Below, piece after piece: positions 18,181 through 55,470 of a DNA stretch of 64,000 nucleotides (its first letter is position 1; each line of letters starts with the position of its first letter). This stretch comes from a virus (Duplodnaviria; Caudoviricetes). The position numbers were made by a program, and so were the translations under genes. The notes below the pieces were generated by a model. The model saw nothing but the letters and a program-made list of their open reading frames with translations, was not told where the DNA came from and ran no database searches. Location of the stretch: the IMG/VR virus record IMGVR_UViG_3300012016_000699, positions 37,964 through 101,963 of that record. The stretch is one strand, 5' to 3'.

Positions 18181-18849
18181 ATGAAGATTATCTCCTACAA
18201 CATCCACCACTGCACACAGGAGAAGGTGGACAACATCATCAGACGCGGGGCGGACGTGTGCATCCTTCCCGAGATGTCAGATCCGGCAACGATGGCCATT
18301 CCAGCCGGATTCAATGCGTTCTGGACGGGCGACATCAGCTGGAAAGGGCTCGGCGTCATCGTCCGTCCCGGCATACAGGCAAGGGTTCCGGATTGGTTTA
18401 ACCCATCCAGCAAGTACTTCATCCCCCTCATCGTCAAAGGCATGCTGATAATTGCAGCCTGGCCGACGCGCAGGGAGTCCAATGAGCCGAAGGGCTACCC
18501 TCAGATAGCGCTGGAAGGCATCAGGGAGTATGCCGTGCACTTTGACGCATTTCCGACACTCATCAGCGGAGACCTCAACCTCTACATGGGGCAGCAGGAC
18601 GAGACGGAGGAATACTCCCTCCTGTCCTTCGCATCCCTCCTCAGACGCTACGGCATGGTAAGCGCCTACCATCACTTCACCCATGAGCTGTTCGGCGAGG
18701 AGTCGGTGGCAACCTATTACCACAGGTTCGACGAAAGCCAGCCGTTTTTCCTTGACTACACGTTCACGAACATTCCTGTGAAGAGGTACAGGCTCGTGAA
18801 GTGGAACGCCGGCTTCAGCGACCATGTGGCACAGTTCATAGACATCTGA
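18181..18849 (+). CDS. Endonuclease/exonuclease/phosphatase (EEP) family protein; moron
   Basis: MKIISYNI, DVCILPE, ISGDLN, FFLDY, FSDH; own promoter and terminator; opposite strand. Confidence 0.85.
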   Translation: MKIISYNIHHCTQEKVDNIIRRGADVCILPEMSDPATMAIPAGFNAFWTGDISWKGLGVIVRPGIQARVPDWFNPSSKYFIPLIVKGMLIIAAWPTRRESNEPKGYPQIALEGIREYAVHFDAFPTLISGDLNLYMGQQDETEEYSLLSFASLLRRYGMVSAYHHFTHELFGEESVATYYHRFDESQPFFLDYTFTNIPVKRYRLVKWNAGFSDHVAQFIDI

Positions 18850-25032: not shown

Positions 25033-25215
25033 CTATTGTATTTTTATGACGTGGGAAATGATGATGCAGGCTACGATGCCGACAAGACACACCCCGCTGA
25101 CAATCAGCATGAGGATGTAGTCGTACTCCATTGCCTCATCTGCCGTGGCTTTGCCGCTGTTCACCTTCCTTGCCAGCATCATGAGCCGGCAGAACGATTT
25201 CCTGAAATCTGTCAT
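25033..25215 (-). CDS. Small single-TM protein
   Basis: Hydrophobic ILMLIVSGVCLVGIVACIII; ATGA overlap. Confidence 0.5.
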   Translation of the reverse strand: MTDFRKSFCRLMMLARKVNSGKATADEAMEYDYILMLIVSGVCLVGIVACIIISHVIKIQ

Positions 25216-34564: not shown

Positions 34565-35338
34565 TTAGTCCTCCTGTTCGTTTTCGGGTTCAACTTCCTG
34601 TTCGCTCTCTTCCTCCGCCTCGGTGTCCTCGTCCTTCTCTCCGTAGAGTATGGCCTCCTGGAGCTCCGTGTCACCCAGCAGCCATGCGAGGAATCCGTCG
34701 GTCTTGTCGCCGTGCCTGCTCTTGTACTCCTCCACCAGCTGCTCCAGACTCTCGTACTCGGCATCGGTGAGGAAGAACTCGACATAGCCGCACTTGAAGG
34801 TCTTCATGGTAATCTTATTCTTGCCGGCCTCAACGTCGTTGATCTTGTCGGCGTAGTCGTAGAGGTCCCAGCTGACACTTCCGAAGAAGTCGCAGATGAG
34901 GTCGCGGCTAAAGAACTTACGCAGCATTTCGGGATCGTCCTCTCCGGAGTGCAGGTTCTCCTTCATCAGCAACTCACGCTTCTCCTCCTCGCTGAATGTC
35001 TCTATGGTACGGCAGGGCACTTCCGGGTTGGACTGCCACTGTAGCCAGTACTGGATGAGGTTACGCTGCTGCTCCTCTGCCATTTCACGGTAGATAGTCT
35101 GCTGGACCAGCATGTCCTCTATTGTGTCTTCGTCCATTTCAAGGATAGCACGAAGGGACTTACAGCGGTGGTTGCCGCTCCAGATTACGCTCTCGTTGTC
35201 GATCTTGATGGGGTTGATGGCCATCATCCAGGGAGAGAGCAGGAGGCTCTGGGTCAGTTTCTCCTGCATGAACTCCGTGATGGTCCTCGGGTTCAGCGGG
35301 TTAATGACTAACTCCCTTACGTTTACTAACTTATCCAT
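34565..35338 (-). CDS. ParB/Srx N-terminal domain protein (paralog of 33872..34561)
   Basis: NPLNPRTI, IWSGNHR. Confidence 0.8.
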   Translation of the reverse strand: MDKLVNVRELVINPLNPRTITEFMQEKLTQSLLLSPWMMAINPIKIDNESVIWSGNHRCKSLRAILEMDEDTIEDMLVQQTIYREMAEEQQRNLIQYWLQWQSNPEVPCRTIETFSEEEKRELLMKENLHSGEDDPEMLRKFFSRDLICDFFGSVSWDLYDYADKINDVEAGKNKITMKTFKCGYVEFFLTDAEYESLEQLVEEYKSRHGDKTDGFLAWLLGDTELQEAILYGEKDEDTEAEEESEQEVEPENEQED

Positions 35339-35378
35339 TTTTTGCTGTAATGTTGAGATTTGATTATGAAAAACGGTG

Positions 35379-35433
35379 CAAATATAATCATTTATCGTAA
35401 CTTTTACGACTTTTTACGATATAAAATGATTAT
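35379..35433 (-). promoter_or_regulatory. Promoter of the ParB cluster with overlapping inverted repeat
   Basis: TATATTTG at 35379-35386; ataatcatttatcgtaa / ttacgatataaaatgattat imperfect palindrome. Confidence 0.6.
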
Positions 35434-35457
35434 TTTTGTGAATTTTTAGGTCTAAAG

Positions 35458-35489
35458 TTTGGATAATCGGGCAAAAGTGCCTAATTTTG
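35458..35489 (+). promoter_or_regulatory. Consensus Bacteroidota sigma-A promoter facing against phage transcription
   Basis: TTTG (35458-35461), 20-nt spacer, TAATTTTG (35482-35489). Confidence 0.75.
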
Positions 35490-35492
35490 CAT

Positions 35493-35619
35493 ATGAGATT
35501 AATACAATTCCAAACTGTTCTGCCTCGATGCCGTTTGGCGGGAGGTCACTTTTTGCGATTTGATATTATCTTATTTGCTTAAAAAAGGACTGGCTGTGAA
35601 GCTCGTCCTTTCTTTTTTT
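35493..35619 (+). ncRNA. Putative multi-target antisense sRNA (~125 nt)
   Basis: Bounded by a promoter and an intrinsic terminator; segments complementary to several phage mRNA leaders. Confidence 0.6.
35581..35619 (+). terminator. Intrinsic terminator (possibly bidirectional)
   Basis: aaaggac-tggc / gctc-gtccttt hairpin followed by a T7 run. Confidence 0.75.
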
Positions 35620-35636
35620 ACGTCCACTTCATAGAC

Positions 35637-35671
35637 AAAGAAAGGCAGACCGTCGGTAGTGACAGCCTGCC
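35637..35671 (-). terminator. Intrinsic terminator of the early cassette
   Basis: Minus strand ggcaggctgtc-actacc-gacggtctgcc-tttcttt. Confidence 0.75.
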
Positions 35672-35673
35672 CG

Positions 35674-35729
35674 TGGCGGGGTAACAGAACATTCCAGTTG
35701 CAAATAGATAATAATCCCGGCCCCCGCCA
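35674..35729 (-). other. 3'-UTR stem-loop whose loop is antisense to the repeated leaders
   Basis: tggcgggg/ccccgcca stem enclosing aacagaaca and ttgcaaatagataataatc (plus-strand text). Confidence 0.65.
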
Positions 35730-35734
35730 GTGGT

Positions 35735-36151
35735 TTAGCCGAAGGTGTGCATCAGGCCATGCTTCTCGTCGTAGTCCCATAGGAAGTCGTGCTTGCCCTT
35801 GCAGCTGCAGGAGGAGCATTTGTACGGCGGGCACCTGTGGCAGAAGCCGTTCCTGTTGTCCCTGCACCTGGCGACGAAGCCCTTCAGGGCCTCCGAGCGC
35901 AGCCTCTGCTGCTCCTCACCCTTGATGTAGAGGTCTATCCTGCTCCTTGCCACGCGCTCCAGGGTGGCGATATCGGCATAGCCGCTGGTGTAGACCTGCT
36001 GCACGTCCCTGTCCGTACGCTTGACGTACACCGTGACGCCCTTGAACTTCCGGAAACGGAAGCAGTAGGCGTGCCCCCTGTACGATCCCTTGCGGAAGGA
36101 GCCCTGCTCGGTGAGCGGGTACTCGTTATCCTCGAACTTCTCCAGTGCCAT
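35735..36151 (-). CDS. Hypothetical protein with Cys-rich C-terminus
   Basis: ORF; C..C..C...C..C cluster. Confidence 0.6.
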   Translation of the reverse strand: MALEKFEDNEYPLTEQGSFRKGSYRGHAYCFRFRKFKGVTVYVKRTDRDVQQVYTSGYADIATLERVARSRIDLYIKGEEQQRLRSEALKGFVARCRDNRNGFCHRCPPYKCSSCSCKGKHDFLWDYDEKHGLMHTFG

Positions 36152-38442: not shown

Positions 38443-38628
38443 TTAAGAACATGTTTCATACTCCTTGGTACGCTTGGCGAGTTCCTCCTCACTCATAAGC
38501 TCCATGAGCTGGTCGTGGACGACCTTTGCAAGCTCCCGCTCAGAGGGGTCGGGACTCTGGTTGTAGTACTGGAAATCGCAAACGAGGATTTCGATCTTGT
38601 CGGGGTTGTAATTCGAGCTGTAATTCAT
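38443..38628 (-). CDS. Hypothetical protein (start revised to ATG 38628)
   Basis: First gene behind promoter copy 2. Confidence 0.65.
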   Translation of the reverse strand: MNYSSNYNPDKIEILVCDFQYYNQSPDPSERELAKVVHDQLMELMSEEELAKRTKEYETCS

Positions 38629-38752
38629 AATGTTGTTCTGTTTAAATTGTTTGATTATCATCTTATTTGCAATACAAAGATACGAAAATGTAATCAAATA
38701 TGCAAGTTTTTACGGAATTATTTTCGTTAAACAAAGTTAATCAAATTTGCAA
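38629..38752 (-). promoter_or_regulatory. Repeated promoter/leader, copy 2
   Basis: TATCTTTG at 38675-38682; leader GCAAATAAGATGATAATCAAACAATTTAAACAGAACAACATTATG. Confidence 0.9.
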
Positions 38753-38777
38753 TCCAGCAGGCCTGCGGAGGCACGCG

Positions 38778-39906: not shown

Positions 39907-40028
39907 AACTGTTCTGTTTTTAAAGTTTGATTATTATCTTATTTGCAATACAAAGATACAAAAAAATAATCAAATATGCAAGCTTTTACGAAAAAACTTC
40001 CGTTAAATAGAGTTAATCAAATATGCAA
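39907..40028 (-). promoter_or_regulatory. Repeated promoter/leader, copy 3
   Basis: TATCTTTG at 39951-39958; two TTGCATATTTGATTA boxes. Confidence 0.9.
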
Positions 40029-40041
40029 TGCAGAGCAAAGG

Positions 40042-47924: not shown

Positions 47925-47938
47925 CTCCGAACAAATTG

Positions 47939-50795: not shown

Positions 50796-50927
50796 TTGTT
50801 CGGACTTTTTTAGAGTGATTATCATCTTATTTGCAATACAAAGATACAAAGAAATTATCAAATATGCAAGAAATTACGATATTATTTTATAATCCAATAC
50901 GTTAAAATGAGTTAATCATATTTACAA
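50796..50927 (-). promoter_or_regulatory. Repeated promoter/leader, copy 4
   Basis: TATCTTTG at 50839-50846; leader ends TCCGAACAAATG. Confidence 0.88.
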
Positions 50928-50973: not shown

Positions 50974-51010
50974 ACAGCAGAAAAGTCCACTTCAACAAAG
51001 AAGTAAACCG

Positions 51011-55065: not shown

Positions 55066-55076
55066 AACAGAACAAT

Positions 55077-55337: not shown

Positions 55338-55470
55338 AATGTTGTTCTGTTTAAATTGTTTGATTATTATCTTATTTGCACTACAAAGATACAAATAAAT
55401 AATCAAATATGCAAGTTTTTACGGGTTTAATTTTATCTTATCTGCTAAAAATAGTTAATCAAATATACAA
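55338..55470 (-). promoter_or_regulatory. Repeated promoter/leader, copy 5
   Basis: TATCTTTG at 55384-55391; leader nearly identical to copy 2. Confidence 0.9.

Follow-up and report, generated by a model that had tools for sequence, protein, structure and literature searches.

The window analysed here, a stretch of 64,000 nucleotides, corresponds to bases 37964–101963 of a 101,963-bp IMG/VR record classed as a provirus, the full record being referred to as G000. Nearly all of its genes lie on the minus strand and encode, among others, ParB-like proteins, helicases and other phage-type proteins. According to the list of open reading frames, all genes neighbouring the element under study, the stem-loop SL1, are on the minus strand, and SL1 itself lies in an intergenic gap of 396 bp (35339–35734). 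This gap is bordered by the gene of a 138-aa protein (35735–36151, minus strand, stop codon TAA at 35737–35735), the last of its operon, and on the far side by the first of three ParB-like genes (34565–35338, minus strand). The 138-aa protein gave no match in Pfam or PHROG and retrieved no relatives when used as a search anchor in IMG/VR, and a Pfam search with ten further proteins, including candidate plus-strand reading frames, found neither an integrase nor a repressor. The regions upstream of the genes contain 45% A, and Shine-Dalgarno-like (SD-like) motifs precede only 17% of the genes. The housekeeping promoter consensus of the Bacteroidota is TTTG/TAnnTTTG, and the presence of such promoters, together with the A-rich upstream regions and the low proportion of SD-like motifs, was found to be compatible with a Bacteroidota host. 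The phage would be an uncultured one of Bacteroidota type, with translation probably starting on unstructured, A-rich leaders devoid of an SD sequence.

SL1 (35674–35729, minus strand) is formed by two arms, 35722–35729 and 35674–35681, that close a loop of 40 nt. On the plus strand, T35674 to G35681 face C35722 to A35729, giving 8 bp with 7 G-C pairs, and the GC stem described in the first-pass annotation was confirmed to the exact base. The plus strand of the loop reads AACAGAACA at 35683–35691 and TTGCAAATAGATAATAATC at 35698–35716; on the minus strand, GATTATTATCTATTTGCAA (termed anti-A) comes first and is followed by TGTTCTGTT (termed anti-B). In the minus-strand direction, the stop codon (35737–35735) is followed by SL1 (35729–35674), a second hairpin, SL2 (35672–35643), and a U-rich tract (35633–35642), with SL1 beginning 5 nt past the stop codon and abutting SL2. 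The latter is an intrinsic terminator hairpin with 12 pairs and a folding energy of −20.7 kcal/mol. Two of its minus-strand G·U pairs would be A·C on the plus strand and, in relatives, a UA-to-CG compensation (G002) and a GU-to-GC change (L032) were observed, which assigns this terminator to the minus-strand RNA. SL1 was also considered as an intrinsic terminator and this was ruled out, since its loop measures 40 nt and the sequence next to it is ACGGGCAGG rather than a U tract.

From the cassette at 38682 as far as the ParB promoter at 35386, the minus strand contains no TAnnTTTG box, which makes SL1 part of the 3'UTR of the operon led by the leader at 38653–38672; the promoter-leader of this minus-strand operon lies at about 38690 and its terminator at 35643. 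Additionally, there was no strong terminator or promoter motif between anti-B and its own leader target, and the gene upstream of SL1 differs in the related contig G001, so that no internal promoter is conserved before SL1. The position 5 nt after the stop codon, directly before a terminator and with no preceding promoter motif, identified SL1 as a 3'UTR structure, and its earlier placement in a 3'UTR on the minus strand, which is the transcribed one, was upheld. The further idea of a separate, lytically expressed RNA found no upstream promoter motif to account for it; SL1 would act instead within the mRNA, whose predicted 5' end lies in the leader and whose predicted 3' end lies at SL2, or as part of a putative processed 3' fragment.

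The same gap holds an anti-leader small RNA (sRNA) gene on the plus strand (35459–35620), in which a TTTG-N20-TAATTTTG promoter is followed by an anti-B segment, a hairpin and an anti-A segment, and which closes with a terminator (35584–35620). Its fold is markedly stable (z = −4.68), with the anti-A segment largely buried in a long hairpin, and the apical part of the hairpin covaries, GCC/GGC being replaced by GTC/GAC in G001. The anti-B segment of this sRNA tracks the leaders, reading AACTGTTCTG in the window and AATTGTTCTG in G001, where the leaders read CGGAACAATT and one G·U pair results. The convergent anti-leader RNA that had been proposed about 100 bp away is borne out by this promoter, terminator, hairpin covariation and fold, whereas the two-RNA switch that it was proposed to form with SL1 is hypothetical. 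The sRNA promoter (plus strand) and the promoter of the ParB operon, TATATTTG (minus strand), diverge from each other with about 100 bp between them (35379–35489). The ParB leader has neither A box nor B box, so the ParB operon would escape both anti-leader RNAs. SL1 was also tried as an anti-start element of the next gene downstream, as in T4-type sequestration, and this was rejected because the leader of the ParB-like gene is unrelated.

Leader cassettes and the complementary loop segments

Ten promoter-leader cassettes were found in the 101,963-bp record, all ten on the minus strand. They consist of GCATATTTGATTA direct repeats, a promoter of the form cTTG-N20-TATCTTTG, an A box (GCAAATAAGATAATAATC), a spacer of 10–25 nt and a B box (AAACAGAACA) located 2–5 nt from the ATG. 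The cassette of the SL1 operon (38626–38689, minus strand) includes the −7 box, the A box (38653–38672), the B box (38634–38642) and a probable start codon at 38626–38628, assigned by alignment with the other cassettes. Given the usual promoter spacing, transcription would start at or beside the G of GCAAAT; with such a start, the mRNA would begin with the A box, and the ribosome-loading region would contain the B box.

Three G000 cassettes have an A box of the sequence GATGATAATC, with an internal ATG. The one at 38661 (region 38653–38661, minus strand) is in frame with the downstream gene, so that open reading frame callers place the start inside the leader, as opposed to the predicted 38628–38626. 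Of the two GCATATTTGATTA repeats of a cassette, one overlaps the −33 region and the other lies about 50 nt further upstream (repeat regions 38690–38760, 39960–40030, 50850–50920 and 55390–55458, minus strand); these repeats are likely candidate sites for a phage transcription factor. A gene start in G000 outside the window (L043:7170–7248) follows two tandem A-like boxes, both reading ATGCAAATAAGTTATCA, as well as AAGAACAGTTTATG, and has no standard cassette promoter.

Both leader boxes have their complement in the loop of SL1. The anti-A module (35698–35716, minus strand) forms the complement of the A box of the leader, GCAAAUA(A)GAUAAUAAUC, leaving one A bulged, its sequence carrying a 1-nt deletion relative to the leader (AAATAGAT versus AAATAAGAT). 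The anti-B module (35683–35691, minus strand) is the complement of AACAGAACA, which occupies positions −13 to −5 relative to the first start codon of the module's own operon. The swapped order reported initially, anti-A before anti-B on the minus strand, was also found to be correct. In shuffled sequences, the expected number of matches to the 20-mer with up to three mismatches was 0.00, and the AACAGAACA 9-mer was found five times against 0.74 expected, with three of the five in leaders. Each genome has a single sense-strand copy of the anti-A sequence, at the orthologous site every time, and these figures together indicate that the match is not due to chance. The window gave no match in Rfam 15 at the gathering threshold, and a permissive scan of 35300–35800 returned only sub-threshold plus-strand matches, none of them on SL1; the best Bacteroides family was BTnc231, on the plus strand, with 17.9 bits against a gathering threshold of 80.4.

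Conservation, covariation and folding

Searches of GenBank phages by distant-mode blastn, and of GTDB genomes with the ParB-like protein and a DNA pattern specific to SL1 and SL2, gave no match. Two IMG/VR contigs, G001 (97.8 kb) and G002 (58.6 kb), carry the same cassettes and the same intergenic block at 79–82% identity, and further distinct versions were obtained from the metagenome contigs L032 and L034/L031. Four distinct relatives (G001/L030, G002, L032 and L034/L031) were thus compared, their intergenic regions being 76–85% identical. An exact A-box pattern search in IMG/VR also returned singleton contigs (5 of 12 stretches), which were rejected as AT-rich chance matches without cassette context.

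G001, L030 and L032 have a different gene upstream of SL1, with the region of homology stopping at 35734, right at the stop codon, which makes SL1 part of the regulatory block and not of the adjoining gene. The exchange of the last gene of the operon for an unrelated one in these three contigs, with its recombination boundary precisely at the stop codon and with SL1 and SL2 kept, resembles a moron slot with fixed regulatory ends.

The stem reads GGCGGGG/CCCCGCC in the window, L034 and L032, and GACGGGG/CCCCGUC in G001 and G002. It shows one double change from G-C to A-U and is maintained at 7–8 bp by differing extra pairs, the pairs having been taken from explicit extraction because the MAFFT alignment staggered the short arms. 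The linker after the 5' arm is variable (GCCGG, CAGG, CUG or UGA), and the loop spacer varies in both sequence and length (6–13 nt). All four distinct relatives retain the anti-A core, TTATTATCTRTTTGC, together with the 1-nt deletion relative to the leader. Only two substitutions were found inside the anti-A pairing zone, both of them A-to-G on the minus strand and giving G·U pairs with the leader, and the conservation of anti-A ends exactly where the cassettes diverge, 5' of GCAAAT. Since the A box is invariant in all the genomes, covariation cannot probe the pairing of anti-A.

The anti-B core is likewise kept in the four distinct relatives, and it covaries with the leaders. The leaders read CAGAACA in the window, mostly CGGAACA in G001 and CAGAAC in G002, and CAGAACA faces TGTTCTG in the window and CGGAACA faces TGTTCCG in G001. 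The full pairs are TGTTCTGTT with AACAGAACA in the window, TGTTCCGT with ACGGAACA in G001 and GTTCTGTT with AACAGAAC in G002. Pairing partners also changed together in three further orthologous operons, few independent events being represented. The element of L032 reads CTGTTCCAAAG, which predicts a start region with TGGAACAG in the leader of the L032 phage. In G002, the anti-B (L021:1960–1985) shows a tandem GTTCT/GTTCC duplication, TGTTCTGTTCCG, complementary to both CAGAAC-type and CGGAAC-type sequences. With four relatives at 76–85% identity, conservation alone carries little weight and the stem covariation may reflect a single event. The conservation of the stem in related phages, which the first-pass annotation had named as a check, was observed in all four distinct relatives, with a compensatory change, and was accompanied by the covariation of anti-B with the leaders.

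When folded alone, SL1 presented a modest z-score of −1.95; the case for the stem rests on conservation and covariation and not on energy. Minimum free energy (MFE) folds of the window and its orthologues keep SL1. Folded on its own, the RNA forms both SL1 and SL2; most of the anti-A core is left unpaired, and part of anti-B is covered by a weak inner helix. In a 261-nt read-through RNA (z = −5.5), all modules stay local, which speaks against long-range pairing with a downstream partner. The anti-A/leader duplex was calculated at about −20 kcal/mol versus −11 ± 3 kcal/mol for shuffles, and the loop-leader duplexes at about −16 to −26 kcal/mol versus −10 to −15 kcal/mol for shuffled loops. The net gain on cofolding SL1 with the leaders was −4.7 to −7.6 kcal/mol with the stem opened; RNAcofold cannot represent pairing of a loop with a linear strand while the stem is closed, and its energies presume an open stem. 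The anti-A duplex is AU-rich and bulged, and 18 bp within a closed loop would require threading of the mRNA 5' end or opening of the stem.

Start-region complements at other terminators

In at least six operons, that of SL1 included, a complement of the start region of the operon's own first gene was found directly 5' of the terminator. The leader at 55362, AACAGAACAA, has its complement, TTGTTCTGTT, at 55075–55066 (10/10), and the start of the PRTRC operon, AGCAGGAAAGTC(ATG), is matched by GACTTTTCTGCT at 50987–50976 (12 bp, one G·U). Similarly, the leader at 50817, TCCGAACAAAT(G), with a start region specific to its operon, is complementary to ATTTGTTCGGA at 47936–47926 (11/11), the leader at 39929 is complementary to 38822–38815 (8/8), and a leader outside the window, at G000 position 25079, is complementary to TAACTGTTCTGT at about 18594–18605 of G000 (L043; 12/12). 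The tail complements are 8–12 nt long, two of them are unique to their operon, and some include start codons. In the two operons with unique start regions, the tail matches the operon's own start and not that of the next gene. For 5 of the 10 G000 cassettes, the complement was significant against shuffled start regions (P ≤ 0.015), the sense, reversed and complement controls reaching 4–8 nt only, and four or five G000 cassettes displayed no clear 3' complement. In orthologous operons of G001, both partners have changed together, for example AACGGAACAAT with ATTGTTCCGTT.

Judged by sequence, the anti-B of SL1 is a local case of a general anti-start module adjoining terminators, and what is peculiar to SL1, the most elaborate of the tail elements in this genome, is the anti-A module and the closing stem. 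As the anti-start adjoins terminators generally, an anti-A added upstream of it yields the permuted order automatically. The first-pass annotation had read this order as a mirror of the plus-strand RNA topology, and a generic anti-start with an upstream anti-A module offers the simpler account.

Proposed action, alternatives and known systems

The explanation that is considered somewhat probable is that SL1 takes part in 5'–3' UTR pairing of the icaR type, or gives rise to a 3'UTR-derived RNA, and represses leader-driven translation, so that it probably damps the translation of early genes. Once the operon has been transcribed, the 8-bp GC stem would present a largely open 40-nt loop just upstream of the terminator hairpin. 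Anti-B, in the 3' part of the loop, would pair with the A-rich region before the operon's own first start codon, and anti-A, in the 5' part, with the first 18 nt or so of the mRNA, the A box common to the ten cassettes. Such pairing between tail and head would most likely stop ribosome loading, giving negative feedback on early-gene translation, and would probably expose the mRNA to decay. The action could take place in cis, with the tail folded onto the head, or in trans, through a stable fragment protected by SL1 and the terminator; through its anti-A module, a trans-acting fragment could reach every A-box leader and thus bring about an early shut-off.

A wider proposal, which is tentative, is that the early programme of this phage group is run largely by RNA–RNA pairing, with private anti-starts, the pan-leader anti-A of SL1 (operon F) and the convergent sRNA as its three levels. 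The private 3' anti-start of each early operon would limit the translation of that operon, the anti-A seed of SL1 would silence all cassette-driven operons once early transcripts build up, and the convergent sRNA would serve as a master antisense RNA covering the same leaders from the opposite strand. If true, this would amount to a temporal or lysis-lysogeny circuit built on RNA and operating in a host lineage without Shine-Dalgarno-dependent initiation.

Several other explanations were weighed. It is conceivable, though unlikely, that only anti-B works, as the anti-start of its own operon, and that anti-A and the stem serve the neighbouring sRNA locus, SL1 pairing in a read-through RNA with A'/B' segments 100–200 nt downstream or setting termination efficiency, and in this way governing both interference at the sRNA promoter and passage into the ParB-like operon. 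The minus strand at 35590–35515 does carry an A'-hairpin-B' arrangement to which the SL1 loop is complementary, the intergenic block has been passed on as a single unit bounded exactly by the outer edge of SL1, and the divergent sRNA and ParB promoters resemble a switch region. However, when the read-through RNA is folded (MFE and centroid), the long hairpin, the bidirectional terminator, SL1 and SL2 all stay local modules and SL1 does not pair with A', the A-A-B-B order would require a pseudoknot, and two terminators stand between SL1 and A'/B'. A role as a DNA site was given a similarly low probability. The A box would then be an operator, and 35698–35716 and its inverted copy at 35562–35580 would be two more, flanking ones; the A box does cover +1 to +20 in all cassette promoters, where operators are commonly found, and this one intergenic region contains two inverted A-like boxes separated by about 135 bp. 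This would leave unexplained the closing stem and its compensatory change, the way anti-B covaries with the start region, the complements particular to single operons that adjoin other terminators, start codons included, and the bias of the minus-strand substitutions towards G·U, and the GCATATTTGATTA repeats, at about −25 and −75, are better candidates for a protein site in the cassettes.

It is improbable that the element acts from the plus strand as a leader mimic, where an RNA reading through the sRNA terminator would show the B and A boxes in sense and would sponge the sRNA or allow its self-inhibition. On the plus strand SL1 indeed reads as leader sense and lies only 55 nt beyond the sRNA terminator, but that terminator is strong (a stem followed by U7), the intervening SL2 has A·C mismatches on the plus strand, the change in G002 gives C·A against the sRNA but G·U against the leaders, and SL1 matches the minus-strand terminator pattern of the other operons. 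The view of SL1 as a functionless relic, in which recombination left cassette fragments beside a GC-rich inverted repeat, seems very improbable. The many near-identical cassettes could recombine, and operon contents are exchanged between relatives; nevertheless, a simple inversion or deletion of a cassette cannot place the modules in swapped order on the opposite strand, the modules have been retained as the linkers decayed, and covariation is found both with the leaders and within the stem.

For the preferred reading, 5'–3' UTR pairing or a 3'UTR-derived repressor, the kind of regulation is already known. DicF, a processed sRNA of the Qin prophage, is a phage-borne example of the 3'UTR-derived type. 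The antisense immunity RNAs c4 (P1/P7) and CI RNA (P4) are cut from the 5' part of an immunity operon, act in the prophage state and shut down phage genes; like SL1, they have two short segments complementary to two separate phage leader sites. Unlike them, SL1 is at the 3' end and is probably made in lytic-type transcription, and it shares no sequence or structure similarity with them and has no Rfam match. Pairing between the 5' and 3' ends of the hbs mRNA of B. subtilis reportedly stabilises that mRNA. The 5'/3'-UTR interaction of hbs is reported together with ribonuclease control of stability (PMC5737220), and the likeness to SL1 lies in the pairing of the two ends of a single mRNA with each other; since the pairing of SL1 would cover the start region, repression is more likely here than stabilisation of the hbs type.

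In the icaR mRNA of Staphylococcus aureus, pairing of the 5'UTR and 3'UTR governs translation (Ruiz de los Mozos et al. 2013, PMC3868564). A segment of the icaR 3'UTR is complementary to the ribosome-loading region of its own mRNA, and SL1 similarly carries a complement of its own transcript's start region (35691–35683), with the two partners changing together between genomes. Unlike in icaR, the predicted target comprises an SD-less, A-rich start and the extreme 5' end, which would be reached by two modules displayed in a stem-closed loop beside the terminator; SL1 also belongs to a multi-gene phage operon, and six operons or more of this genome share the design, with a different sequence in each. 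Small RNAs derived from 3'UTRs share the terminator of the parent mRNA (reviewed in PMC7821165), and SL1 resembles them in this shared terminator, in having no promoter of its own, in its conserved single-stranded seed and in the start regions as targets. It differs from them in that its predicted main targets are the parent and sister operons and not host genes, the processed species being putative. The sRNAs FopS and GibS of Bacteroides thetaiotaomicron repress initiation by pairing at the mRNA 5' end and start region (PMC11697453). A Bacteroidota-type host and pairing at the mRNA 5' end and start region are thus common to FopS and SL1, whereas FopS, unlike SL1, is encoded by free-standing host genes with promoters of their own.

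SL1 is new in being bipartite, presented in a stem-closed loop, phage-borne and part of a genome-wide set of operon-specific tails. End-to-end pairing of mRNAs is known from a few single bacterial genes, and here it is predicted for at least six operons in one phage genome; pairing across multiple operons with co-changing partners would mean a designed layer of phage control. SL1 extends this pattern with a second seed against the common early leader, beside an sRNA gene that is directed against this leader too. The arrangement, if confirmed, would provide a simple, portable limiter of translation for Bacteroidota, in which starts are unstructured and SD-less, as well as a testable model of early-gene shut-off for uncultured rumen and gut phages.
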